Assembly (NCBI GenBank): GCA_965197825.1
Contig: CBDANW010000002.1
Location: forward strand, 1,146,551 to 1,210,550
DNA from: Candidatus Marinacidobacterales bacterium
GTDB lineage: Bacteria > Acidobacteriota > Vicinamibacteria > Marinacidobacterales > DATDRI01
DNA: 64,000 nt
Direction: 5' to 3'
Part shown: piece by piece, positions 30,611 through 50,608 of the stretch
Layout of the letters: each line of letters opens with the position of its first letter
Position numbering within the stretch: the stretch's first letter is position 1
Translations under genes and position numbers: made by a program
Notes under the pieces: model-generated
Databases searched by the model: none
The model's input: only the letters and a program-made list of their open reading frames with translations
Told to the model about the DNA's origin: nothing

Positions 30611-31411
30611 ATGGACTTTCTCAAGAACGTCTTGCCGGCCCCGGTGGTCGACATCTTTGTCCCCATCTTCCTGGTTCTGCTGGCAGTCTACTTCCTGCAC
30701 AGTTATCTGATTCCGCCTTTGAAGCGTAAGCTCCAGGAGTCGGGAGCCTGGCGCCAGATCGTTGATCGTTTCGGGGGCGAGAGGCTACGCCAGCTCCAGT
30801 TCAACCGTGAAATCGCGAGCCTGAAGAAAAGTGGCGATCTCATGGGGGCCGCACAACTCTACGAAGACGCGGAGTGGTACGAGCAAGCTATCGAGACCTA
30901 CATCGGGGCCGGTGAATTCATCGCCGCCGGGACGCTCTACGAGAAGTTGGAGTACTGGGAGCACGCCGCCGACATGTACCGGCAGGCCGACGACTGAAAA
31001 CGAGCCGCCAACACCTTAGCCTCCGCCGGGCAAGGCGTAAAGGCCGCCGAGGTCTACGAAGAACACGGACAGAAGATCGACGCGGCGAAGCTTTACTTCG
31101 ATGCGGGGCGATTCGACCGCGCGGCCGAGTTGTACGAAGCCGTCTCCTACTATCCCCAGGCAGCGCAAGCCTACGGGAAGCTGGGAAATTCCATGAAGGC
31201 CGCGGAAAGCTACGAGAACCAACAGAGCGAGTCCCTCCTGCAAGCGGCCAACGTGTATCTCCGCGCCGAAAAGAAAGAAGAAGCGGCCACGATGTTTGCG
31301 AAAGGCGGAGACGCTTTGATGGCCGCCAAGCTCTACGCAGACATCGGCAAAGACGCCGAGGCCTCGGAGCTATTCGAGAAGGCAGAACATTACTTCGAAG
31401 CGGGCCGACTA
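30611..31411 (+). pseudogene. 5' part of a repeat-protein/kinase-like gene: tandem 13-residue AAxxYxxxGxxxx repeats, in-frame TGA, then IS630 insertion
   Basis: ORFs 30611-30997 and 31130-31429 are in the same frame, separated by a single TGA (30995-30997). At least 10 consecutive 13-aa units are present (AAEVYEEHGQKID, AAKLYFDAGRFDR, AAELYEAVSYYPQ, AAQAYGKLGNSMK, ...). Confidence 0.6.
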
Positions 31412-32500
31412 GTGGACTGTAACAACTGAACGTTTAGTGGTTTTAATGCGTCGTGACGGATCGTTGTAGGTCCACTTCACGGGCTTGGGGTCTTCGTTGT
31501 ACTTGCGAATGTAGCGCATGATCTTGCGGGTCAGGTCGTGGGTTGACGTGAACACGCCTCGATGGATCAGGGCACGCTCGATCTTGGAGAACCAGAGTTC
31601 GATTTTGTTCAGCCAGGAGGAATATGTGGGTGTGAAGTGGAGTCGGACTTTTGGGTTGGCCTCGAGGAACTGTGCGACCTTGGCGGTCTTGTGAGCCGAC
31701 AGATTGTCGAGGATGACATGTATTTCGCGCTTTCGCTTGTGGCTCGCAACCAGCTGCTCCAAGAAGGCGACGAACTCCTGGCTGGTATGGCGGCGGACAG
31801 TCTTGCCCAAAACCACCCCCGTCTTCGTGTCGAAGGCGGCGTAGAGAGAAAGCGTTCCATGCCGGACGTACTCGAAACCGTGTCGCTCGGCCCGCCCGGG
31901 AGACAACGGCAAAATCGGGTCCCGTCGATCCAGGGCTTGGATCGCCGTTTTCTCATCAATACAAAACACCGCAGCGTGCTGAGGTGGATTCATATATAGA
32001 CCGATGATATCCGCTGCCTTCGTCTCGAAATCCGGATCGTTGGAGGCCTTGTAATGCTCAATTCGGTGTGGCTGGAGACCATGCTTTTTCCAAGTGCGAG
32101 CCACCATCATGTGATGGATTCCCAGCTTCTTCGCAAGTCGACGCGTGCTCCAGTGAGTCGAGCCGTCGGTCGGTTTTTTCTGCGTCCACGAAAGAATCCG
32201 TGCTTCCATCCGAGGCGTGAGCACTTGAATCGGACGCCCCTCGTGACGCGCGTACAGACCTGCCAGACGCTCCTCCAAGAATCGGCGTTTCCACTTGCTG
32301 ATAAAAGGCGCCGTGCAGCCCACCGTCTGCTGCACCTGCGTATAGCTTGCACCGTCTGCCAGCAAGAGCAACATCCGAGCGATCCGCGCGTCATCCGCTC
32401 GACCGCTACAGCTCGAAACTCGTTTGCCAAGCTCCCTATGTTCCGCTTGAGTCAACACAACGGCTCTCCCTCGCATGAAAGAGATATTACAACTAAACAC
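31409..32500 (-). CDS. IS630-family (Tc1/mariner-like DDE) transposase
   Basis: HTH N-terminus, FCIDEKTAIQAL, HGFEYVRHGT, ILDNLSAHKT and FTPTYSSWLNKIELWFS motifs. The probable start is MRGRAV (32476). The stop codon is formed at the IS/target junction. Confidence 0.9.
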   Translation of the reverse strand: MFSCNISFMRGRAVVLTQAEHRELGKRVSSCSGRADDARIARMLLLLADGASYTQVQQTVGCTAPFISKWKRRFLEERLAGLYARHEGRPIQVLTPRMEARILSWTQKKPTDGSTHWSTRRLAKKLGIHHMMVARTWKKHGLQPHRIEHYKASNDPDFETKAADIIGLYMNPPQHAAVFCIDEKTAIQALDRRDPILPLSPGRAERHGFEYVRHGTLSLYAAFDTKTGVVLGKTVRRHTSQEFVAFLEQLVASHKRKREIHVILDNLSAHKTAKVAQFLEANPKVRLHFTPTYSSWLNKIELWFSKIERALIHRGVFTSTHDLTRKIMRYIRKYNEDPKPVKWTYNDPSRRIKTTKRSVVTVH

Positions 32501-32508: not shown

Positions 32509-33476
32509 TACAGTCCACTAGCCAACCAGTTGGGCGACGAGGAGCAGGCGATTCGACTGTTTCAACGAATCGACTCGTCGGATCAGAACTACGAAAACGC
32601 CACGCTGCTTCTCTCGCGGCTTTTCCTCAACAAGGGCATGGTTTCCCTGGCCCAGGAAAAGCTCCAGCGGGTCCTGCGGGATCGACCCATCGGCAACCAG
32701 ACGCTGGAACACTATTATTGTCTTGGTCTGGTCTACGAAAAGCTGGGCAAGCGTGACGAAGCGCTCGAAACCTTCCGCAAGGTCATGTCCGAGCGCTACG
32801 GTTACGAAGACGTCGAAGAACGGATCGCTCAAGCTTCTGTAGGATCGCGCGGTGGTCGAGCTCTTCCTGGCGGAGGCCAAGATCGCAAAGACCTTCGACC
32901 ATCCCAATCTGGTCCGGTTGCTCGGTTTGACGGAAATGCGAGGGCACAAAGTTGTGGTCACCGAGTACGTGGAGGGAAAGAGCCTCGACGCGCTCCTATC
33001 CGGAAACAAGCGGTTGGGCGTCAAACAAGCGCTCGATGTGCTGTCGACGCTTTGCATCGCGCTCGGCTACGCCCATCAGAGAAAGCTGCTCCACAAGGAT
33101 CTGAAGATGACCGATGTCTTGGTCGCTCGCGGGGGGCAAGCTCCGGCTCGCGGGGCTCGGACTGGGGGCGCTGCGGACACCCACGTCGGGAGAGGGCTAC
33201 CGGTACCCTCCTCCGGAGTTCCTTGCCGGAAGCCCAACCGATGCGCGAACGGACATCTACTCGCTCGAGGGAATGCTGTTTCATGCGATCAGCGGACTCC
33301 ACCCGGGAAGCCCCGAAGCGGCAGCCAACGGAGCCCCCCCGGCCCTGCGGAAACTGGTACCCGAAGTCCCCGACTCGTTGGACGAAATCGTCACTCGTTG
33401 CCTAGCCGAGAAGCCCGAGGAACGCTTCGCCAACGTCGCCGATCTGTACGCGGCGGCCAGCGAGCTGCGCAACTAA
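32509..33476 (+). pseudogene. 3' part of the same gene: TPR-like segment followed by a degenerate Hanks-type Ser/Thr kinase domain, with at least 2 frameshifts
   Basis: TPR-like LGLVYEKLGKRDEALETFRKVM (32530 frame). Kinase subdomains FDHPNLVRLLG, VVTEYVEGKSL, HKDLKMTDVLV (HRD/KPxN degenerate), LAGLGLG (DFG replaced), PPEF, DIYSLEGMLF and C-lobe VTRCLAEKPEERF are spread over three frames (32530, 32852, 33114). Confidence 0.6.
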
Positions 33477-33521
33477 CTCAACTCGCTTTGTGACTCCCGC
33501 CCCGACTAGAATGGCCCCACC

Positions 33522-34184
33522 GTGCAGTGTTGGTCTTGCGAAAAAGTAAAAGGCAAGCGATCTTGCCCCGCGCATGCCGGGGACAGCATTTGCTCGCGCT
33601 GCTGCGGCACGAAGCGTCGCGTGGAGATCCGATGCCCGGAAGATTGTCCGTACTTACACGGCGAGCACGATCCCCGTTGGGAGTCTCCCGGCCAAAAGAT
33701 GGAAGGCATGGACTTCCTTTCTCGATTCGGCCAGCTCTCCCGTGAACAAGTCCCCTTTCTGATCTTTTTCCACTCCCTGCTGTTCCGAGCCTCTCGGGAG
33801 CTCTCCGAAGCGCTGAGCGACGAAGAGCTCGTGGCCGTGGTCTCTACCCTGGGGCGCACCTACGAGACCTTGTCCAAGGGTGTCGTTTACGAGCACAAGA
33901 GCGAAAACATCCGACTGCAGAGCATCATCACACGATTAGGAGAGATCTTGGCCCAGCGCAAGGAGATTTCCGGCGTGCCTCCCGCCTCGGACGCTCACGT
34001 GCTTGCCGTGCTGGCGAGCACGCAATCCGCGATCGAAGCACAGAAATCGGCGGCCGATGGCCAAGAAAGCAAGAAGAGCTACTTGGATGTAGCGGAGCGC
34101 GTGTTCCACGCCGCGATCGCCGAGTTTCCGGAGCCAGAGATTCCCGGAGAGTCTCGAGCCGGAGGACTCATCGTCGAGCCCTGA
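33522..34184 (+). CDS. Hypothetical protein with N-terminal Cys-rich zinc-ribbon-like segment
   Basis: MQCWSCEKVKGKRSCPAHAGDSICSRCCGTKRRVEIRCPEDCPYLHGEH followed by about 160 aa with no recognisable motif. Confidence 0.4.
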   Translation: MQCWSCEKVKGKRSCPAHAGDSICSRCCGTKRRVEIRCPEDCPYLHGEHDPRWESPGQKMEGMDFLSRFGQLSREQVPFLIFFHSLLFRASRELSEALSDEELVAVVSTLGRTYETLSKGVVYEHKSENIRLQSIITRLGEILAQRKEISGVPPASDAHVLAVLASTQSAIEAQKSAADGQESKKSYLDVAERVFHAAIAEFPEPEIPGESRAGGLIVEP

Positions 34185-34271: not shown

Positions 34272-35298
34272 TTGGCGAAACGCCCCGTGGCAGCCGTTCT
34301 CGGCGATATCAACCGCGACCTCTTCGTGCGCGTTCGCCATTTTCCGAGACCCAGCTGGGATAACCCGACCGATGGGAGCACCTGGGCTCTAGGGGGTTCC
34401 GCCGCGAATACCGCGGTCGTGCTCGCTCGCCTCGACGTGCCGGCAAGCGTGATCGGAAGGATCGGCAGCGATCCCGAGGGGGCGCGCGCTTCTCAAGGAG
34501 CTCACCCGCTCCGGCGTCCATACCGGTGCCGTCCAAAAGGATCCTTCGCGGGCGACCGGGATTTGTATCGTCCCGGTGACCGCCGACGGAGAGCGCACGC
34601 TCATAGGGATCCGCGGAGCCAATTGCGCTTTGCAGCGAGACGGCATCGCGGAGGCGGTCGAGGGCATCCGACACTTGCACGTTTCGGGCTACGCATTGAT
34701 GCAGCCCGAATCACGCCGCGCCGCGGTGCTCGCCCTTGAGACAGCCAGGAAGCAGGGCGCCGTGACCTCGCTGGACTTCGGTTGGCAACCGGCCACCTCC
34801 GCCCCGGAGTTCGTTCGTCGCGCCCTCGGTCACGTCAGCCTCGCATTGCCCAGCGCGCAAGAGCTGAGAATGGCTTTGGGAGAAAGGCGCCTGAGCCGAG
34901 CAGCCAGCAAGGCACGGGCCATGGGAGTGGAGCATGTCGCGGTGACCCTGGGTGCGGGAGGTTGCAGGATCTTTTCGGGAGATGGGACGTTTCGAGTTCC
35001 TCATTTCGAGTCTCGAGCCATCAACACCTGCGGCGCCGGCGACGCATTCAACGCCGGTTACATACTCGGAATGCTGGAGGGAGCGAGTGCAGAGACCTGT
35101 GCCATCCTCGGAAACGCAGCCGGCGCCGCTGTCGTGGAGTCGGACTCGTCGCACGAGGCGGTGACCAGAGACAAGCTCTCGAAGATTATTCTTCGCGCAA
35201 AGGATGCCCCGAAACTCAAGCAGTTCGCTACCGCGGTTGATGACGCCATCGGACTGCTGTCGGCCAAATCGAAAAGAAGAAGGAGGAAAACGCGATGA
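34272..35298 (+). pseudogene. PfkB-family carbohydrate kinase (ribokinase-like) with a frameshift at a G5 homopolymer
   Basis: N-terminal frame (VAAVLGDINRDLF...ALGGSAANTAVVLARL) switches at about 34485 (gagggggcgcgc) to the frame of ORF 34576-35298. That frame carries the anion hole and ATP motif (TCGAGDAFNAGYILG). It has a Lys/Arg-rich C-terminal tail. Confidence 0.75.
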
Positions 35299-36198: not shown

Positions 36199-36290
36199 CT
36201 ACGTCGCTCCAGTGAGGCTACGGCGGGCAACCTGCCGAACGTCGCCGGGGACATTCGCTTGCGACAGAGGGCAGGTTGCTGCGCCGGCGG
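36199..36290 (+). promoter_or_regulatory. Leader-region stem-loop (10-bp inverted repeat gcaacctgcc ... ggcaggttgc) upstream of the TLC-HEAT gene
   Basis: ggctacggcgggcaacctgccgaacgtcgccggggacattcgcttgcgacagagggcaggttgctgcgccggcggg. The stem arms are about 40 nt apart. It also contains the dispersed gctacggcgggca motif. Confidence 0.35.
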
Positions 36291-36356
36291 GACTGGCATA
36301 ACATATTGCCCCTTCATTGGGGACGTCAGGACTCTTGAATTGAGAGAGCTGCTTTT

Positions 36357-39158
36357 ATGAGCGATTCGTTCCTTCGTCGTCTTCTTTCGCCCATCCTCAC
36401 CCTACGGGAAGGCGAAGCCGCGACCGCGGTGAAGATGTTCATCTACTCCTTCCTGGTGATGACCGCCTACAACAACATCAAGCCCTCGGCGACCGCGAAA
36501 TTCATTGACGACGTCGGCGCGGACAACCTCCCCTGGGTCATGCTGGTGGCCGGTGTCGGCATGGGCTTCATCATGCAGTACTACAGCCGGCTGGTGGGCA
36601 AGCTTCCCCGCCTGTGGGTCTTGCCGGGAACACTGGTTGCAGTAGTCGGTACCTTGGTAGGCTTCTGGTTCCTCTTCCAGATCGGCCAAACCTGGGTCTC
36701 GGTCGCGTTCTATTTCTGGGGTCGGTTGCTCCTGGGTATTTTTCTCATCAGCCAGTTCTGGACCTTGGCCAACGATATCTACGATCCCCGGCAGGCCAAG
36801 CGCATCTTCGGCTTCATCGGTGGCGGGGCGAGCCTCGGCGGTATGACCGGGGCCGGGCTGACTTCGCTGCTAGCGAGGCGAGTGGGCGCGGACACCCTGA
36901 TTTTGTTCAGCGCCGGTATCTTGGCCATCTGCTTCGTTCTGGTGATTCGAATCCAACGAAAAGAACAACCCGCCGAGCGCGGCAGCATCGCCCGGAAGGA
37001 AACCCTCGGAGGCGGCGAGGCTTGGGCGATGGTCCGTCAATCGAAGCATCTAGGGCTCATCTCCTTGGTGATCGGCTTCGCCGCGCTGGGCGCGGTGACG
37101 GTCGAGCAGCAGCTCAACATGGCGGCCGAACAGTTCGTCCAGGGGGAAGACGGTATCGTTAGCTTTCTGGCGCAAATCACCTTCTACCTTTCCGCCATCA
37201 GCTTCGTCATCCAAATCTATTTTACGAGCCGCATCCACCGGTTTCTCGGCATTGGGTTCGCCTTGATGGTGCTGCCAATGAGCTTGGGGGCTTCGGCGTT
37301 TCTCATTCTGTTCCATCCGGTTCTCTTGTCGACGATGGTGGCCCGCATTACCGACACGTCGTTGCGCTACAGCCTCGACAAGACCACCCGCGAAGTTCTA
37401 TTCCAACCCCTTCCCAAAGAGACCAAGCTCAAAGCCAAGGCCTTCGTCGACGTTACGGCCGATCGGTTCATCGGAAAGGGACTCGGTTCAGTCGTTCTGC
37501 TGGTCATGCTGAAAGTCTTTGGTGTTACTTGGATGCAACTCAGTTTTCTCAGCCTCACCTATTGCGTCCTTTGGCTATTCCTGGCGAGGAAAGCAAAGAA
37601 GGAGTACACCGCCAGCTTCCGACGGAGCATCGAGCACTTGGATCTCGAACCTGTGGCGATGAGACCGCAAACGGCGGACGCGGCCACCGTGGAGACCCTC
37701 GTCGAAGAGCTGGGGAGCGCCGAAGAGCATCGTGTGCTCTACGCCATCGATCTCCTCGACTCCCTCGACAAGGCCAACCTGATTACGCCACTTCTCCTGC
37801 ACCATGAAGCCCCCGGAGTGCGTGCGCGAGCCCTGGCTAGCATCGCGGCGGCACGCCCCGAGCTCGTACACCGGTGGGCACCGGCCGTCGAGCGGGCCCT
37901 CAAGGATGAGAGCGCGGACGTGCGCGCCGCGGCGGTCACTGCCTTGGCGGCCATCCGCGGAGAGAAGAGTACGGAGTTGATGCGGCCCTATCTGAACGAT
38001 CACGATCCTCGCATCGTGGCCGCCGCCGCCGTGGTCATGGCCAGTAGCGATAGTGACGAGGACGTCGACGCGGCCGAGTCGGCGCTCCGACGAATCTCCT
38101 CAGACACCCGCGAGGGAGCGGCGGGGGCGCGGCGCCAAGCCGCGCGCGCCATCGCCCAGATCCAGAGTCCGCGATTCCGGAGCCTGCTCATCCCCCTCAT
38201 GTACGACGCCAACCTGGAAGTCGCCAAGGAGTCGATCGCAAGCGTGAGCCGCTTCGGTACGTCGGACTACATGTTCGTGCCGTCCCTCGTCTCACTCTTA
38301 CGACACCGCCGTCTCAAGAACATCGCGCGGCAGGTGCTGGTCAGTTACGGCGAGGGAGTCCTCGACGCGCTAGCGTACTTCCTGAAAGACCCCGACGAGA
38401 ACCCGTGGGTGAAACGGCACATTCCGGGCACGCTCGCCCGCATCCCGTGCGAGAGAACGGTGGGGATTCTCCTCGAAACACTCGATGACGATGACGGCTT
38501 CATCCGTTACAAAACGGTGACCGCTCTCGGGCAGATTCGTCGAGAGCATCCAGAGCTCACGATCGATCCGAAGCCCGTCGAGAAGCTCGCCCTCCGAGAC
38601 GCGTTGCGCTACTACCATTATCTCGGCGTTCACTACGGTCTATTCCAGAAAGAAGGTCTCGGGTCGGGCTCCCTCGTCGATCGAGCACTCGTGGAAAAGA
38701 TGCAGCGAGCACTCGACCGGGTCTACGAGCTGCTCGGGCTCATCTATCCTTGGAAGGACATCGCCGCGGCACGGTGGACGCTCGAACATGGCGTGGCTCG
38801 CTCCAAAGCCAGTGCCGCAGAGTACCTCGACAACATGCTCGGCGGAGACCTCCGCAAGCGTCTGATGCCAATCATGGAGGACATCCCCATCGAAGAAAAA
38901 GTGCACAGGGGCAACGTCTTCTTGAAGACACGCGTGCGGAGCACCGAAGAAACGCTGGCCCGACTCATCTATGACGACGATCCGGTCGTAGCTGCCACCG
39001 CGATCGATCTCGTTCGTGAGCAAAAGATGTGGTCTCTAGCAGACGATATCGAAGAAGTGCTTGCCTTCCGAGATGCAAAGGATTTCTTCGTCTTCGAGGC
39101 GGCGTCCTTCGCGCTGGCCGCACACCGACTTGGAGAGGAGAAGCCCCGTGCGTTTTGA
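36357..39158 (+). CDS. Fusion protein: TLC-family ATP/ADP-translocase-like membrane domain + C-terminal HEAT-repeat domain
   Basis: About 430-aa N-terminal region with about 12 TM helices and a TLC-like start (LSPILTLREGEAATAVKMFIYSFLVMTAYNNIKPSATAKF). It is followed by about 500 aa of PBS-lyase/HEAT-like repeats (HEAPGVRARALASIAA, ESADVRAAAVTALAAI, DHDPRIVAAAAVVMA ...). Confidence 0.75.
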   Translation: MSDSFLRRLLSPILTLREGEAATAVKMFIYSFLVMTAYNNIKPSATAKFIDDVGADNLPWVMLVAGVGMGFIMQYYSRLVGKLPRLWVLPGTLVAVVGTLVGFWFLFQIGQTWVSVAFYFWGRLLLGIFLISQFWTLANDIYDPRQAKRIFGFIGGGASLGGMTGAGLTSLLARRVGADTLILFSAGILAICFVLVIRIQRKEQPAERGSIARKETLGGGEAWAMVRQSKHLGLISLVIGFAALGAVTVEQQLNMAAEQFVQGEDGIVSFLAQITFYLSAISFVIQIYFTSRIHRFLGIGFALMVLPMSLGASAFLILFHPVLLSTMVARITDTSLRYSLDKTTREVLFQPLPKETKLKAKAFVDVTADRFIGKGLGSVVLLVMLKVFGVTWMQLSFLSLTYCVLWLFLARKAKKEYTASFRRSIEHLDLEPVAMRPQTADAATVETLVEELGSAEEHRVLYAIDLLDSLDKANLITPLLLHHEAPGVRARALASIAAARPELVHRWAPAVERALKDESADVRAAAVTALAAIRGEKSTELMRPYLNDHDPRIVAAAAVVMASSDSDEDVDAAESALRRISSDTREGAAGARRQAARAIAQIQSPRFRSLLIPLMYDANLEVAKESIASVSRFGTSDYMFVPSLVSLLRHRRLKNIARQVLVSYGEGVLDALAYFLKDPDENPWVKRHIPGTLARIPCERTVGILLETLDDDDGFIRYKTVTALGQIRREHPELTIDPKPVEKLALRDALRYYHYLGVHYGLFQKEGLGSGSLVDRALVEKMQRALDRVYELLGLIYPWKDIAAARWTLEHGVARSKASAAEYLDNMLGGDLRKRLMPIMEDIPIEEKVHRGNVFLKTRVRSTEETLARLIYDDDPVVAATAIDLVREQKMWSLADDIEEVLAFRDAKDFFVFEAASFALAAHRLGEEKPRAF

Positions 39159-40071
39159 GCTGCTCCCTCCCGTTCCCGCGGTTGCGCTGGCAGACCAGCT
39201 TCGTCGCATTCCCCTCTTCAGCTTCGTCAACGTCGATGAGCTGTTCCGGATCTCGTCGATCGCTCGTCAGGTGCGGTACGAAGTGGGTGCCACGATGCAA
39301 GAAGAAGGGACGCCGGTCGAGTACATCCAGGTCTTAGTGGAAGGCAGGATCCGGATCACCGGAAAGGCGCGCCAGGAGGAAGAGATGTCGCCTCCCGCGC
39401 TTCTGGGCTTCCGGGAGGTCTTGGAAGGTGCTCCGCTGCGGGAAACGGCGCAGGCGGTCGAAGGCTCCGTCTGCCTGGCGATCGCGGCCGAGGAGTTCCG
39501 GGCTCTTTTGTCGGACAACATCGAGCTAGCGCAGGGCCTGTTCCAGCAGCTCTTGAGCGCGCCCTCGAAGAACGAACGCCCCAGCTTGATGAGGCGTGGC
39601 GTCCATTTGGAAGAAAGACCACGGGCCTTGGAAGCGGGCCAGGAATTGAAACCCATCGAGAAAGTCCTGCTTCTCCAAGAGCTACCCGTTTTTTCCAGGA
39701 CCACCGCCGACGAGCTCTTTGCCCTAGCGGCGATCGCCCGGGAGTTCCCTCTCGTCGACAACGAAGGCGTCTTCAACGAGGGGGATGCGCCCGCGCTTCA
39801 CATCGTCTTGTCCGGCGAGTTTTCCGTCCAGTCACCCGACGACGATGGGCAAGCGGAAGTCGTCAGGGCCGGCGACGTTTTGGGGCTCCACGAGACACTG
39901 GCAGGGACGCCATTAGATTGGCGCGCCAAGGTGACAAAAGGGGGGATGGCACTACGGATCGAAAGGGACAAGTTGTTCGAGGTGTTAGCGGATCAGGAAG
40001 ACCTGCTCCAGGCCCTGTTCAGCGCACTCTTCCACTCTTCCGCTTCACCCGGCAATCTCGATTCGGCCTAG
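39147..40071 (+). CDS. Protein with two cyclic-nucleotide-binding (cNMP/CAP effector) domains
   Basis: The GTG start overlaps the upstream stop (ccc GTG cgt ttt ga). Two repeats each show the LRRIPLF...VDELF... pattern and GD.LG...L beta-roll elements (LLGFREVLEG; GDVLGLHETLAG). Confidence 0.8.
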
Positions 40072-43519: not shown

Positions 43520-45028
43520 GTGGTTCGCATAAAAAACGAACACGACCTCGAAACACTCCGCCAGATAGCTCTCCTCGTTGATAACGAGAACCAGCGCCTC
43601 GTCAATGAAAACGTTCGTCTGCGAGTGGAACTGGCGAGACTCCATGGTGTGCCGGAAACGGAGCAACTTGAACTGTCGGTTCTCAAGCAACTACAGGAAA
43701 AGCGAGAGAGCATTTTCCGCATCGACGAAAAGCGGACCCGGAAGAAAACGAAGGCTAAAAAGAACAAGAAGAAAGGGCACGGCCCGCGCGAACAGCCTCA
43801 TCTTCCCGTGGTCGACAAAGTAATCGAACTCGCCGAGACAGAGAAAAAGTGCTCGGTGTGCGACGGCGAGCTGGCGGGTCAATACGAGGAATCGGAAGTG
43901 GTGACGGTGGTGAAGCGGAGCTTCGTCATCGAACGGCATTTGCGGAAAAAGTACCGCTGCCGATGTAACGCGAACGTCGTCACCGCACCGGCGGCGACGA
44001 AGCTTCAGCCCGGAGGCCGCTACTCGGTGGAGTTCGCGACCGAAGTGGCCATCAGCAAGTACCTGGACCATATGCCTCTCGAGCGCCAGGTTCGAATGAT
44101 GCGCCGCGAAGGGCTAGATATCGACAGCCAGACGCTGTGGGACCAGCTGAACGTACTGGCACGTCATCTGAATCCGGTGTACGACGCTCTGGGAGAGAAG
44201 GTTTTGGAGTCACCCGTCATCCACGCCGACGAAACGCGGTGGCCTCTGATGGGCTCGATGAAGAAGTCGGCGGGCACGGTGTGGGGCGTTTCGAGTCCGG
44301 ACATCGCGTACTACCGAATGCTGCCGACGAAATCGACGGAAGATGGCCAAAAGGTGCTGGGGACCTACTCCGGCATCGCGATTGTGGACGGCTACGCGGT
44401 GTACGAGGTGCTAGCTCGTGCCGGTCCAGACGGCTACGCGGCTCGTGCCGGTCCACAGTTTCGTCTCGCCCACTGCTGGGCGCACGTGAAAAGAAAGTTC
44501 GACGAAGCCAGCGAGCACTACCCGCAAGCTTGCTCCGAAGTGCTTCGTTTGATCGGAGAGCTGTACGAAGTCGAACGCGAGGTCCCGGGTCCGTTTCCCG
44601 GCGATGAAAAAGCTCAGAAACTGAGACTTCGTTTACGCAAGCAACGTTCGCAGCGGATCTTGAAAGCGATTCGGCAATGGGGCGAGAGCCAAAGAGGATT
44701 GCCGCGAAGCGACTTCGGCAAGGCGGTCCGCTACATGCTGGAGAGATGGGAGACACTCACGCTGTTCGCCGAAAACCCTCTCGTCTGGCTTGACAACAAT
44801 CACGCCGAGCGCGCCCTGAGGGAACCTGTCGTCGGTCGCAAAAATCACTACGGCAGTCGAACGAAACGCGGAACCGACGTCGCAGCGCTGTTCTACACCC
44901 TGTGCGAGACCGCGAAGCTTCAGAACGTCGACCCCAGGGCCTACATGCTCGAAGCGGCCTACGCCGCCATCAACCAGCCAGGAACCGTGTTACTCCCCGA
45001 CGCCCTACGCGACAACTCCGCTGCGTAG
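43520..45028 (+). CDS. IS66-family transposase TnpC
   Basis: Leucine-zipper N-terminus, Zn-ribbon (CSVCDGEL...CRCN), DDE core ([10 protein letters not shown]..., [25 protein letters not shown]); 502 aa. Confidence 0.95.
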   Translation: MVRIKNEHDLETLRQIALLVDNENQRLVNENVRLRVELARLHGVPETEQLELSVLKQLQEKRESIFRIDEKRTRKKTKAKKNKKKGHGPREQPHLPVVDKVIELAETEKKCSVCDGELAGQYEESEVVTVVKRSFVIERHLRKKYRCRCNANVVTAPAATKLQPGGRYSVEFATEVAISKYLDHMPLERQVRMMRREGLDIDSQTLWDQLNVLARHLNPVYDALGEKVLESPVIHADETRWPLMGSMKKSAGTVWGVSSPDIAYYRMLPTKSTEDGQKVLGTYSGIAIVDGYAVYEVLARAGPDGYAARAGPQFRLAHCWAHVKRKFDEASEHYPQACSEVLRLIGELYEVEREVPGPFPGDEKAQKLRLRLRKQRSQRILKAIRQWGESQRGLPRSDFGKAVRYMLERWETLTLFAENPLVWLDNNHAERALREPVVGRKNHYGSRTKRGTDVAALFYTLCETAKLQNVDPRAYMLEAAYAAINQPGTVLLPDALRDNSAA

Positions 45029-46169: not shown

Positions 46170-49100
46170 TTAGGGTCGTCCTTGCTCCAAAAGACGATCG
46201 ACCTGGAGAAACCTCCCTTTCGATACGACCCCGTCGACCCTCCGGAGGTTGCGAATGTCCGCCACCGGGTCCCCATCCAAGATGACCAGGTCGGCGAACC
46301 GTCCGGGAAGGATGCTTCCTAGATCGTCCGAGGCGCCCAGGGCCTCAGCGGCTACCTGAGTCGCCGAATGAATTGCCTGAAGCGGCCCTAGGCCCGCCTC
46401 CGACATCTGCTCGATTTCGAGGATCAAACCATACCCGTAGGGAACGATCGGCGCGTCGGTACCCGCCACGATGCGCCCGCCAGCAGCGGAGATAGCACGC
46501 AGCGTCTGGAAGATCGGCAACATGATCTCTTCGCGCTCGGCCACTTCCCCGACTGGCGCGCGGCGCGCGGCACCGAGCGCCCAGGGTGGAAGAAGCGCGG
46601 CCAGGCGGGCATCATCGAGGAGCTCCGGTTCGCGAGCGAGCGCGAGTTGGAACCCTCCCGTGATCAGGATCGTCGGGGTGACATACACCCCGGAGCGCGA
46701 CACAAGGTCGACAACGTCACGGTAGCTCCTCCGTAGAGCGGAGATCTTGGGAGAGAAGCCCCGCCGGCTCGTTCCCCTGAGATGCTCGATGCCATCCACA
46801 CCAAACGCGACCGCGGGGTAAATCTCATGGGAGGTGACAAAGATGCCGCGGCGGTGAGCTTCCTCGACGGTTCTCCGTTGTAGCTCATCGGAAAGCCGTA
46901 CGTACGTCTTGACCAGGTCGTAGTCGAGTGTGAACGCCCGACGGAGCTCTCGCAGAAGCTCTTCTTCAGTCTCGATCGCCAGATAGTCCGGATAGTAAAT
47001 TCGTCCGCCATCGAGAGCGAAACCGCTCGCGAAGATTCGCGGCCCGACGCGTCGTCCGGAATCGATACTTTCCTGCTCTTCCAACGTCCGGTAGATGGAC
47101 CCGCTGGTGCTGCGAATCGAGGTGACACCGAAGGCCAACCACAGACGGCCTTGACGACTCCCGAAGTCGGGAAGAGTGAGGTGGGCGTGCATGTCGATGA
47201 GACCCGGGATCACGGACTTGCCCGTTGCGTCGATGGTTGGGACGTCATCGGCAGGCTCGCTTCCCGTAGGCCCGATGCTCTGAATTCGGCCCGCCTCGAT
47301 AAGGATGTCCATGTTGTCGCGAGGAGGCACCCCGGTTCCGTCGATGACGCGAGCGTTTCGGATCACCATCCTTCCCACCGGCGCTTGCACTCGGTAGCTA
47401 AGATCCAAAGCGATCTCGCTCGTGCGTCCCCCGTCGATGTCGGCACGAGTCAGCTTGTCCCCGGCGAGAAAGAGGACGCTCCGTGAGTCCGGAGACCACT
47501 GTGGAAAGTGGATCGGCGAATCGAAGACTCGCCGCGGTGCGTCCGTCGGCTCTCCGTCCGGAGTTACCGGGAGGATGTAGAGCGCTCCATCCATGGCGAA
47601 GGCGAGCTTTCGGCCATCCGGACTCCAAGTCGGTCCGTCCCCAGTGCGGGAGCCGACGCTCTTGCCTGACAAGTCTCCCTGGAGCTCGATCGTTCGCTCC
47701 TCCCCAGAATCCTTGGAGACCACGACGAGACGGTTGCCCCCCTCCCGAAAGCGTTTCGAGTAGGTCTCCATCACCACCACCACCAAGTGTTGACTGTCAC
47801 TCGACCAGCTCGGCGAGCCTGCCCAGCGTCGACTCGTCCGAACCAGTCTGGGGCGGCCTCCTTCGGCAGGAATCACATAGAGGTGATCCTCCTCATCGGT
47901 GAACGCGATCCATTGGCCGTCGGGAGACCAGACCGGCGTCACTTCTGCTCCCGGGAGATCGGTCAGCCTCGTCGCCTCGCCGCCGGGAGCCGCGTCCGCC
48001 TTCTTCCTCCACAGATCCATGCTGCCGGCGCGATCGGAAGAGAAGACGATGTCCCGACCGTCCGGCGACCAGCTGGGATCGGAGTCCAGGTACTCGTCGC
48101 GGGTCAACAGGATGGGATTGAGCCCATCGGCGCGGGCGACCCAGATATCCCCGAGCGCGGTAAGCGCGAGCTGATTGCCGTCGGGGGAGAGCACTGGTCC
48201 GACGATACCGCGTACTGGCCGCCGCTCCTCGGGGGACAGTCTTGCCGCACGCCTCGAGTATGCGGGCCGGTTCAGAGCGACCGTGACCGAGAAAGAGATG
48301 GTTTGCGGCGAAGTCTCTCCAGCGCGCAGCCGGCGGATGCGGCCATCCGAGGTGTACAGGAGGCCGCCTTCGGGCATCCACTGAGCGCGAAACGGAAAGA
48401 CATCCTCGCCAGATGTCCTCTTGACCGATTCGCCGCCGCGCGCCGGGACGACTACGAGATCGCTCGCGATGCCTTCCGAAAAACGCCGGTTGGAAACCTC
48501 GTAGGCACGTTCCTCAAGAAGTTGCATGGCGATTTGCCGTCCATCCCGACTCCAGGATGGGCTCGCCGCTTTGCCCTCGAAAAAGGCGATCCTCGACTCT
48601 TGACCGCCTCGCGCCCCGATTCTCCAAAGCTCGGTGGTCCCGACCTCGCCTCGGCCGGATAGGAACGCGATTTCGCTTCCATCCGGCGACCAGGCGGGCA
48701 TGTAGTCGTCCGCTTGGTTGGTGGTAACTTGGGAGACCTCGCTATCGGCGACATCCAGAATCCACACGTCATAGTTGCCGGAGCGGTCCGAGGAGAATGC
48801 GACGCGTGTCCCGTCTTGCGACCAAACGGGCTCACGATCGTCGAACGGACCTTCGGTCAGAGGCTCGAGCCCATTCCCATTGGCATCGATCGCCCAGATG
48901 TCCCAGCTCCCTCTCCGATAGGACTGAAACACGATGCGGCTACCGTCGGGTGAGTAGTCGGGCCGTCGGTCATCACCCAGACCGTCGGTGAGAGCCCAGC
49001 CCTCTCCTCCTTCAACAGGGAGAGACCAGAGCGTCCCTTGTAGATCCAGTGCCAGGCTCGAGCCATCCGGAGACAGGGCGACGGCGAAGTTGGTGCCTTC

Positions 49101-49289
49101 CTCGAGGTTTACCTCGATAGAAGGTGAACCCTCCTGCATTCCGAGCGCCAGGCAAAGTACTCCGCCCAAGCTCACTCCAAGCGCGGTCCCAAACCGCCGG
49201 CCATGAAAAGAAACCCGACCGGATAGGAAGGGTATCCTTTGAAGTAGGCTCATGCCGATCACGTCTCCTGTTCTCGGGGTAGTTTTCAA
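46170..49289 (-). CDS. Secreted TolB-like beta-propeller (PD40 repeats) fused to a C-terminal metal-dependent amidohydrolase domain
   Basis: Signal peptide. Many PD40-type repeats (SPDGSRIVFQS, SQDGTRVAFSSDRSG, SPDGSEIAFLS, SPDGRDIVFSSDR, SPDGQWIAF ...). The C-terminal domain starts at the GLIDMHAHL metal-binding motif. 1039 aa. Confidence 0.8.
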   Translation of the reverse strand: MKTTPRTGDVIGMSLLQRIPFLSGRVSFHGRRFGTALGVSLGGVLCLALGMQEGSPSIEVNLEEGTNFAVALSPDGSSLALDLQGTLWSLPVEGGEGWALTDGLGDDRRPDYSPDGSRIVFQSYRRGSWDIWAIDANGNGLEPLTEGPFDDREPVWSQDGTRVAFSSDRSGNYDVWILDVADSEVSQVTTNQADDYMPAWSPDGSEIAFLSGRGEVGTTELWRIGARGGQESRIAFFEGKAASPSWSRDGRQIAMQLLEERAYEVSNRRFSEGIASDLVVVPARGGESVKRTSGEDVFPFRAQWMPEGGLLYTSDGRIRRLRAGETSPQTISFSVTVALNRPAYSRRAARLSPEERRPVRGIVGPVLSPDGNQLALTALGDIWVARADGLNPILLTRDEYLDSDPSWSPDGRDIVFSSDRAGSMDLWRKKADAAPGGEATRLTDLPGAEVTPVWSPDGQWIAFTDEEDHLYVIPAEGGRPRLVRTSRRWAGSPSWSSDSQHLVVVVMETYSKRFREGGNRLVVVSKDSGEERTIELQGDLSGKSVGSRTGDGPTWSPDGRKLAFAMDGALYILPVTPDGEPTDAPRRVFDSPIHFPQWSPDSRSVLFLAGDKLTRADIDGGRTSEIALDLSYRVQAPVGRMVIRNARVIDGTGVPPRDNMDILIEAGRIQSIGPTGSEPADDVPTIDATGKSVIPGLIDMHAHLTLPDFGSRQGRLWLAFGVTSIRSTSGSIYRTLEEQESIDSGRRVGPRIFASGFALDGGRIYYPDYLAIETEEELLRELRRAFTLDYDLVKTYVRLSDELQRRTVEEAHRRGIFVTSHEIYPAVAFGVDGIEHLRGTSRRGFSPKISALRRSYRDVVDLVSRSGVYVTPTILITGGFQLALAREPELLDDARLAALLPPWALGAARRAPVGEVAEREEIMLPIFQTLRAISAAGGRIVAGTDAPIVPYGYGLILEIEQMSEAGLGPLQAIHSATQVAAEALGASDDLGSILPGRFADLVILDGDPVADIRNLRRVDGVVSKGRFLQVDRLLEQGRP

Positions 49290-49588: not shown

Positions 49589-50608
49589 TCATGATCGATA
49601 CCGGCTTCGAGAGCTATACCGGGCTAGGCAGTAGTCTCGCTCAAGGACTCGTTCAGGAACCCTGCGGCCACCGTCACGCGCGAGGCGGTTCGAGAGTAGC
49701 GAGAGGTTACGTTGGGAGATCATTCGTAACTCCTCGCCGTGCCCCACTGGAGCGGGTTGGAACGTCGCGATTCGGAGGAGAAGCCACGCAGCGGAGTTGT
49801 CGCGTAGGGCGTCGGGGAGTAACACGGTTCCTGGCTGGTTGATGGCGGCGTAGGCCGCTTCGAGCATGTAGGCCCTGGGGTCGACGTTCTGAAGCTTCGC
49901 GGTCTCGCACAGGGTGTAGAACAGCGCTGCGACGTCGGTTCCGCGTTTCGATCGACTGCCGTAGTGATTTTTGCGACCGACGACAGGTCCCCTCAGGGCG
50001 CGCTCGGCGTGATTGTTGTCAAGCCAGACGAGAGGGTTTTCGGCGAACAGCGTGAGTGTCTCCCATCTCTCCAGCATGTAGCGGACCGCCTTGCCGAAGT
50101 CGCTTCGCGGCAATCCTCTTTGGCTCTCGCCCCATTGCCGAATCGCTTTCAAGATCCGCTGCGAACGTTGCTTGCGTAAACGAAGTCTCAGTTTCTGAGC
50201 TTTTTCATCGCCGGGAAACGGACCCGGGACCTCGCGTTCGACTTCGTACAGCTCTCCGATCAAACGAAGCACTTCGGAGCAAGCTTGCGGGTAGTGCTCG
50301 CTGGCTTCGTCGAACTTTCTTTTCACGTGCGCCCAGCAGTGGGCGAGACGAAACTGTGGACCGGCACGAGCCGCGTAGCCGTCTGGACCGGCACGAGCTA
50401 GCACCTCGTACACCGCGTAGCCGTCCACAACCGCGATGCCGGAGTAGGTCCCCAGCACCTTTTGGCCATCTTCCGTCGATTTCGTCGGCAGCATTCGGTA
50501 GTACGCGATGTCCGGACTCGAAACGCCCCACACCGTGCCCGCCGACTTCTTCATCGAGCCCATCAGAGGCCACCGCGTTTCGTCGGCGTGGATGACGGGT
50601 GACTCCAA
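49589..50608 (-). pseudogene. IS66 transposase TnpC C-terminal fragment with stop-codon loss (read-through past the IS end)
   Basis: Identical to the C-terminal 290 aa of 43520-45028, except that TAG becomes TGG at the stop, so the frame runs a further 50 codons into flanking DNA. Confidence 0.85.

Follow-up and report, generated by a model that had tools for sequence, protein, structure and literature searches.

The 64,000-nucleotide (nt) stretch analyzed here, hereafter the window, spans positions 1,146,551 to 1,210,550 of the forward strand of contig CBDANW010000002.1 in assembly GCA_965197825.1, from a Candidatus Marinacidobacterales bacterium of the class Vicinamibacteria (Acidobacteriota). 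Near its middle lie two co-oriented open reading frames (ORFs), gene 1 followed by gene 2, both on the plus strand. Gene 1 encodes a carrier similar to the nucleotide transporters (NTT) of the TLC family, with the fold of the major facilitator superfamily (MFS), which continues into a HEAT-repeat solenoid, and gene 2 encodes a soluble protein consisting of two domains with the cyclic nucleotide-binding (CNB) fold. A stable stem-loop and a promoter-like motif precede gene 1 (Table 1). The locus is a Vicinamibacteria member of the known NTT-HEAT-cNBD family, in which a domain of the cyclic nucleotide-binding type (cNBD) accompanies the NTT-HEAT protein, and it is nothing new in kind.

Table 1. 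Features of the two-gene locus, with positions counted from the first letter of the window (aa, amino acids; bp, base pairs; TM, transmembrane)
Feature	Position	Strand	Basis
Stable stem-loop, with an inner stem and an 11-bp outer stem that contains the perfect 10-bp inverted repeat	36226..36280	+	Folding
Promoter-like motif, TTGCTG (-35), 17-nt spacer, TAACAT (-10)	36276..36304	+	Alignment of relatives
Shine-Dalgarno-like GAGAGAG, 8 nt 5' of the gene 1 ATG	36342..36348	+	Sequence
Gene 1, NTT/TLC-like MFS carrier plus HEAT solenoid, 933 aa	36357..39158	+	ATG to TGA (39156-39158)
Membrane domain of gene 1, residues 21-426, 12 TM helices, MFS fold, NTT signature motifs	36417..37634	+	AlphaFold model
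Cytoplasmic HEAT/ARM-type alpha-solenoid of gene 1, residues 442-925, ~29 helices	37680..39131	+	HEAT_2, AlphaFold model
Shine-Dalgarno sequence of gene 2, GGAGAGGAG, located in the final part of gene 1, with 7 nt between it and the GTG	39132..39140	+	Sequence
Gene 2, soluble tandem CNB-fold protein without output domain, 307 aa	39148..40071	+	GTG start
11-nt overlap GTGCGTTTTGA of gene 2 start and gene 1 stop	39148..39158	+	Geometry conserved across the split clade
Phosphate-binding-cassette equivalent of CNB-A, residues 87-100, GFREVLEGAPLRET	39406..39447	+	Alignments to MloK1 and CRP-like structures
Phosphate-binding-cassette equivalent of CNB-B, residues 246-260, GLHETLAGTPLDWRA	39883..39927	+	Register from CNB-A

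An initial inspection of the DNA alone (the sequence-only reading) had described gene 1 as a fusion of a TLC/NTT-like carrier of 12 TM helices with HEAT repeats, and this description is borne out by the ORF, by the Pfam matches to TLC and HEAT_2, and by an AlphaFold model computed from a 57-sequence alignment (mean predicted local distance difference test [pLDDT] score, 83), which places all 12 TM helices within the membrane domain. The match to TLC (PF03219) extends over two stretches and scores 51.8 bits, above the Pfam gathering cut-off of 21 bits; as TLC is itself part of the MFS clan and the two families score similarly, Pfam alone is indecisive between them. In contrast, a phmmer search with the membrane domain against all PDB sequences retrieved two proteins only, 9j3n (the ATP/ADP translocator of Chlamydia pneumoniae; E = 4e-11) and 9j3j (NTT1 of Arabidopsis; E = 1.7e-6), and in a search with a family profile the E values of these two improved to 1.9e-13 and 1.3e-10, respectively, with no other MFS transporter in the PDB reaching a significant E value. 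In structure comparisons with Foldseek against the PDB, the three best matches were again AtNTT1 and CpNTT1 (9j3l, 9j3n, and 9j3m; E values from 2e-9 to 8e-9, target TM-scores of 0.70-0.72), followed by the MFS transporters VMAT2, SPNS2, and NorA at about 1e-5 (best, 1.3e-5). When aligned with CpNTT1, the gene 1 protein keeps, residue for residue, the signature motifs FWxxANxI, AKR, and PLxxExKxKxKAxxDVxxxRFxxK, and K357, K361, D365, R370, and K374 within these motifs are invariant among its relatives. Sequence, profile, and fold searches alike side with the membrane domain being closer to NTTs than to other MFS transporters, rather than with the generic MFS assignment that would have spoken against the sequence-only reading.

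Downstream of the membrane domain, HEAT_2 matches gene 1 in four stretches (85.4 bits), and the model shows an all-helical solenoid of about 490 aa, with pLDDT values mostly above 90, whose fold matches include alphaRep, PR65/PP2A-A, CAND1, and adaptins. No hydrophobic segment is present in the gene 1 protein past residue 440, and no signal peptide was identified in the gene 2 product. Given the 12 TM helices and the basic N-terminus of the gene 1 protein, these features place both the HEAT solenoid and the CNB domains in the cytoplasm.

The ORF of gene 2 formally begins at an upstream TTG, but conservation instead puts the start at the GTG at 39148, and the exact sequence of the 307-aa product initiated at this GTG is on record in a public protein collection. 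The protein matches cNMP_binding (PF00027) in two stretches (72.7 bits; gathering cut-off, 27.5 bits), with no further Pfam domain detected, and its AlphaFold model (pLDDT 87) is a tandem CNB fold, for which the top fold matches are the regulatory tandems of PKG and PKA-R, including the cAMP-independent PKA-R of trypanosomes. The sequence-only reading of gene 2 as a double cyclic nucleotide monophosphate (cNMP)-binding protein without output domain thus stands for the fold and for the lack of any other domain, but not for the ligand, because the canonical Glu and Arg of the phosphate-binding cassette are absent. The register of the CNB-A cassette was established through alignments to MloK1 and CRP-like structures, and that of CNB-B through its internal similarity to CNB-A. 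In CNB-A, compared with GEMALISGEPRSAT of MloK1, Phe stands in place of the ribose-contacting Glu and Leu in place of the phosphate-clamping Arg, and in CNB-B, both canonical residues are missing as well. Column counts over 60 family members show a conserved G-F-x-E-x-L-x-G-x-P pattern, in which the Arg position is occupied by Leu/Ile or Met/Val, with an adjacent Arg in under half of the sequences; the Gly-Glu ... Arg-(Ser/Thr/Ala) cassette typical of canonical cAMP/cGMP binders is not found. Hence, the CNB fold is supported by profile and model alike but cAMP or cGMP binding is not, and with the canonical contacts missing, the ligand of gene 2 need not be either of these nucleotides. A cassette that is conserved yet different suggests a working pocket of a different specificity.

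To place the pair in a comparative context, we scanned genomes at the species level (one genome per species) for family peptide motifs, which yielded at least 544 loci, and compared the best 80 of these, almost all from Acidobacteriota or Vicinamibacteria metagenome-assembled genomes (MAGs). The two genes are conserved side by side or fused in 74 of the 80 loci, so that the pairing noted in the sequence-only reading is not a peculiarity of this contig: 58 loci contain a single fused ORF of about 1235 aa, and 16 contain the split form (58-89% identity), with the same -11 offset between the two genes in every one of them. Among the other loci, a contig edge falls inside the CNB region in four and before it in one, and the last one, L013, holds a second paralog that lacks a downstream CNB gene. 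The closest homologs of the gene 1 protein (57-93% identity) are about 933 aa long, and those at about 55% identity reach about 1235 aa and include PF00027; some of the latter carry the source-assigned name 'ATP/ADP translocase/HEAT repeat protein/CRP-like cAMP-binding protein.' In distance clustering of the gene-1 proteins, the first bipartition separates the split forms, together with L013 (see below), from all fused forms, consistent with a single fission event at the origin of the split clade. At the junction, the fused proteins read '...RRALWMEPLPAV...' and the split proteins end with '...PRAF*' and restart with 'VRFELLPPVPAV'.

The geometry of this junction also agrees with the sequence-only reading, which had the gene 2 GTG overlapping the gene 1 stop. 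The distance from this GTG to the downstream gene 1 TGA is 8 nt, which puts gene 2 in the +1 frame and creates the 11-nt overlap, and GGAGAGGAG precedes the GTG at 7 nt; the counterpart of this Shine-Dalgarno sequence in L001-L005 is GGA(R)AGGAG. We take translationally coupled initiation of two subunits as the working reading of this arrangement. The conserved pairing or fusion in the best loci indicates that the two products almost certainly work together, and this functional link has about as much support as comparative genomics can give. In L013 (5001-7805), which comes from the same Vicinamibacteria MAG as L012, a second TLC-HEAT paralog that clusters with the split clade is not followed by a CNB gene; therefore, some genomes carry two TLC-HEAT copies, one of them without an adjoining sensor. 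In L010 (7798-10470), the CNB ORF continues without a stop into metallophosphatase-like and TPR-like sequence, for a total of 890 codons, which is probably due to an indel in a long-read MAG and not to a real fusion.

Alignment of the upstream regions of split-clade relatives recovered a promoter-like motif (-35 at 36276-36281, -10 at 36299-36304; putative transcription start at ~36311), which would serve as the promoter of the pair. Its consensus in the split clade, TTGCYG-N17/18-TAACAT, occurs only once in the window. Of the 17 split-clade loci, 15 have the -10 core (C)ATAACAT, or a variant of it differing in one or two bases, ahead of gene 1, and most of the loci with the motif within ~65 nt of the start also have TTGCC(G) some 17-18 nt before this core; fused-clade loci have other TAnnnT boxes at similar positions. 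The Shine-Dalgarno-like site of gene 1 is likewise conserved, reading GAGAGAG, GAGGGAG, and GAGCGAG in L001-L003, the relatives with 81-89% identity of the gene-1 protein. A generic promoter and terminator scan missed the conserved motif and found no convincing terminator, and a sigma-54 reading of the TGGCA...TTGC elements was ruled out by their wrong order and wrong spacing. The gene 1 ATG follows the -10 box by no more than 12-20 nt in several relatives, which implies mRNAs with a very short leader or almost none in this lineage. A small hairpin, CCCCTTCATTGGGG (36309-36322), is located at the putative transcription start and is partly conserved in L001-L003, with a folding z-score of -1.4, which is not significant.

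Taken together, these observations make it moderately likely that the locus is a two-gene operon for the two subunits of one regulated, inner-membrane, NTT-type carrier, with the CNB protein acting as a sensor that tunes transport. Under this model, gene 1 would provide a 12-helix, MFS-fold permease of the NTT/TLC lineage, with a cytoplasmic C-terminus running into the HEAT solenoid of about 490 residues, and the gene 2 protein, translated from the start that overlaps the gene 1 stop, would dock non-covalently at the end of the solenoid, the site to which it is covalently fused in most relatives. Binding of a ligand to the CNB domains would then change the solenoid and, hence, the carrier, so that transport is tuned to the state of the cell. 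The substrate would be a nucleotide or another phosphorylated anion, as suggested by the retention of the basic NTT signature motifs of TM10-11.

Several points weigh against this model. MFS_1 scores 54.9 bits on gene 1, on par with TLC, so the substrate could be a non-nucleotide; the score against the curated NCBIfam model of NTP/NDP exchange transporters (TIGR00769) is 48.3 bits, far under its cut-off of 387.2 bits, which makes the gene 1 product a distant branch rather than a canonical NTT; and identity to the structurally solved NTTs is just 17%. The predicted template modeling score of the gene 1 model (pTM 0.53) leaves the inter-domain geometry uncertain, the replacement of the cassette Glu and Arg in both CNB domains leaves cNMP sensing unproven, the conserved-neighbor analysis of the relatives found no nearby conserved cyclase or other informative partner, and a literature search found no functional assay of any member of the NTT-HEAT clade. 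The low TIGR00769 score, the parity of MFS_1 with TLC, and the low identity, along with the use of HEAT solenoids as generic protein-interaction scaffolds, exemplified by the PR65, CAND1, and adaptin matches, would also fit a membrane domain that is a non-nucleotide carrier or a non-transporting 'transceptor,' with the HEAT solenoid mainly a docking platform and the NTT kinship a matter of ancestry only. This alternative is possible but rather unlikely, given that the NTT-specific basic motifs of TM10-11 and FWxxAN are retained and invariant across the family and that the PDB searches detected no non-NTT MFS protein by sequence. The altered cassettes point to yet another, more doubtful variant, in which the CNB pockets would bind a ligand other than cAMP or cGMP, for instance a nucleoside or a non-cyclic nucleotide related to the substrate, and the complex would be a feedback-gated NTT-type carrier exchanging nucleotides with the surroundings, in a host that may be a free-living soil or sediment acidobacterium; in a rarer version of this variant, the conserved UUU-UGA-G junction may also permit +1 recoding into the ancestral fusion.

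Such recoding bears on the split itself. As gene 2 is in the +1 frame, a tRNA-Phe paired with UUU at 39153-39155 could re-pair with UUU at 39154-39156, with UGA in the A site, so that a prfB-type programmed +1 frameshift would allow some ribosomes to make the ancestral TLC-HEAT-CNB fusion, in addition to or in place of the two subunits; all 16 split loci have NTT-TGA, and all 17 sequences use TTT for the junction Phe, compared with 21% TTT among the Phe codons of these genes. We nevertheless consider this very unlikely because every split locus has an in-frame ATG, GTG, or TTG 0-24 nt upstream, with a Shine-Dalgarno sequence at initiation distance in the nearer relatives; in the window, this sequence is located 7 nt from the GTG, as for initiation, versus about 3 nt before the slip codon in prfB. 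Furthermore, the last sense codon in most loci is ATT or GTT, which would re-pair poorly in the +1 frame, and the retention of TTT is already accounted for by the need for the gene 1 stop, given that loss of the TGA would add 27 to 870 out-of-frame codons. That the split is instead an assembly indel or a recent pseudogenizing frameshift of a fused gene, as the homopolymer indel in the neighboring pfkB gene (an extra G in a G-run) and the T4 run at the junction might suggest, has a negligible probability: 16 independent assemblies, with proteins 58-89% identical, share this split and its 11-nt overlap, the T-run of the relatives is T3 with a substitution and no change in length, and the closest protein homologs are all about 933 aa long. 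Also very improbable is the interpretation of the stem-loop ahead of gene 1 as a cis-regulatory leader (riboswitch or attenuator) of the operon. The 10-bp inverted repeat reported in the sequence-only reading is indeed there (arms GCAACCTGCC at 36227-36236 and GGCAGGTTGC at 36270-36279), in the interval from the stop codon of btpA to the promoter-like motif, and is predicted to form a stable hairpin (-33.9 kcal/mol; z = -4.75), with the whole intergenic region beating shuffled sequences somewhat (z = -2.3), but its placement in a structured 5' leader did not hold up. The 3' arm overlaps the conserved -35 element, which leaves the greater part of the hairpin upstream of the putative transcription start, where it would not be transcribed from that promoter, and the relatives with a -10 box close to the ATG have no room for a leader. 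In L001-L003, the 5' arm is missing and no comparable structure is present (z ~ +0.3, like shuffled sequence), L004 has an unrelated terminator-like hairpin at this position, and an Rfam scan returned sub-threshold noise only. Moreover, perfect 10-bp inverted repeats number 16 in the window, against ~4 expected, so hairpins of this kind are ordinary in this genome. The stem-loop is probably a lineage-specific terminator or insulator after btpA, or functionless.

The two-subunit carrier model finds its closest counterpart in the NTT-HEAT(-cNBD) proteins described by Major, Embley, and Williams in 2017 (Genome Biol Evol 9:480; PMC5381601), with which the locus shares an NTT domain (PF03219), C-terminal HEAT repeats (PF13646/PF02985), and a subsequent separate or fused cNBD (PF00027), and from which it does not differ in kind. 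In that study, NTT-HEAT fusions formed a single, widely distributed bacterial clade, present mostly in free-living bacteria and with three Acidobacteria sequences in the set; some of the genes were followed a few nucleotides downstream, in the same operon, by a cNBD gene, others encoded triple fusions (NTT-HEAT-cNBD), the HEAT-cNBD boundary having undergone fusion and fission repeatedly, and tuning of NTT-mediated ATP uptake was put forward as a possible role of the cNBD. Why a free-living bacterium should have a TLC protein was a puzzle already posed there without an answer, with the function of NTT-HEAT unknown, and the surprise that the sequence-only reading attached to it is out of date, since this distribution is widespread (PMC5381601). 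For later functional work on NTT-HEAT, the literature yielded only the 2017 description and its citations. In an exhaustive search of representative proteins, in which family size was counted as clusters at 50% identity with E <= 1e-30, the NTT-HEAT(-cNBD) branch comprised 2233 clusters, including full-length TLC-HEAT proteins at 27-37% identity. The additions of the present analysis are modest: the split form in Vicinamibacteria is one gene-1 cluster with a conserved 11-nt start/stop overlap, the cNBD is a tandem pair in which the canonical cNMP contacts are not conserved, the NTT-like nature of the carrier is confirmed from structure, and a conserved promoter-like motif is present.

Beyond this family, the nearest neighbors in both fold and sequence are the canonical NTT/TLC proteins (Chlamydia Npt1/NTT1, Rickettsia Tlc1, and Arabidopsis AtNTT1; 9j3n, 9j3o, 9j3j, 9j3l, and 9j3m), which share with the gene 1 protein the 12-TM MFS fold and the FWxxANxI, AKR, and PLxxExKxKxKAxxDV...RF..K motifs but have neither the 490-aa HEAT solenoid nor a CNB partner. 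Apart from the low identity and the score under the NCBIfam cut-off, the locus also differs from the canonical NTTs in its host, which is free-living and not genome-reduced, and transport by the gene 1 product is a prediction. The gene 2 protein resembles the PKA and PKG regulatory tandems in having two CNB domains and no enzymatic output, and PKA-R and PKG act by partner binding; however, its cassettes are devoid of the canonical Glu and Arg, and its putative partner is a HEAT-tailed carrier, not a kinase. The trypanosome PKA-R, which, according to PDB titles, binds nucleosides and not cAMP, provides a precedent for an altered ligand, although its cassette is altered in a different way. Control of a membrane transport domain by a cytoplasmic CNB-fold module, proposed here from sequences and models, follows the logic of the MloK1, HCN, and CNG channels, and the CNBD of MloK1 is among the sequence matches of gene 2. 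Unlike in these channels, the transport domain is an NTT-type MFS carrier, a long HEAT solenoid is placed in between, and the sensor is a polypeptide of its own. Another CNBD-regulated membrane transport protein is the sperm Na+/H+ exchanger SLC9C1.

As to the genomic neighborhood, btpA (PF03437; 35295-36146) and a pfkB-family kinase gene are located upstream of gene 1, and an aldehyde dehydrogenase gene in the convergent orientation is located downstream of gene 2, which delimits the operon to genes 1 and 2 alone; synteny with btpA and pfkB is limited to the four closest loci. Among the PADLOC models, gene 2 had no match and gene 1 only a weak, generic HEAT match, and, given also the identity of the neighbors (btpA, pfkB, and aldehyde dehydrogenase), an anti-phage defense reading of the Pycsar or CBASS type was rejected. 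The pfkB-family gene (34272-35298) is split over two frames (ORFs 34272-34739 and 34576-35298), with a break at ~34478-34482, where its G-run is one G longer than in L001-L003, a homopolymer assembly error or a genuine pseudogene. Farther upstream, a 213-aa ORF (32852-33493) matches only positions 45-133 of a protein-kinase profile and overlaps an ORF in another frame (32530-33405); this region looks like a second disrupted gene, beside a transposase of the IS630 type (DDE_3; minus strand, 31409-32500). Between these, a 220-aa ORF (33522-34184, plus strand) has a Cys-rich N-terminus (CxxC...CPxH...CxxCC...CPxxCP) and no Pfam match; 14 of the 17 split-clade loci have such an ORF ~2-4.7 kb ahead of the TLC-HEAT gene, but the fused clade does not. 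Downstream of the locus, an IS66-family transposase gene (43520-45028, plus strand) and its near-identical, partial, inverted copy (49589-50608, minus strand), ~4.5 kb apart, flank a large ORF of 1039 aa (46170-49289).

NTT carriers are textbook markers of energy parasitism; the NTT-HEAT(-cNBD) branch has a far wider distribution. Identification of the substrate and the regulator of NTT-HEAT would tell whether nucleotide import or export takes place in free-living bacteria and by what means a sensor can be coupled to an MFS carrier through a HEAT solenoid. The 'cNMP' label of the NTT-HEAT-cNBD family may be wrong. The Vicinamibacteria form, in which carrier and sensor are naturally split into separate polypeptides, is convenient for reconstitution and interaction work.

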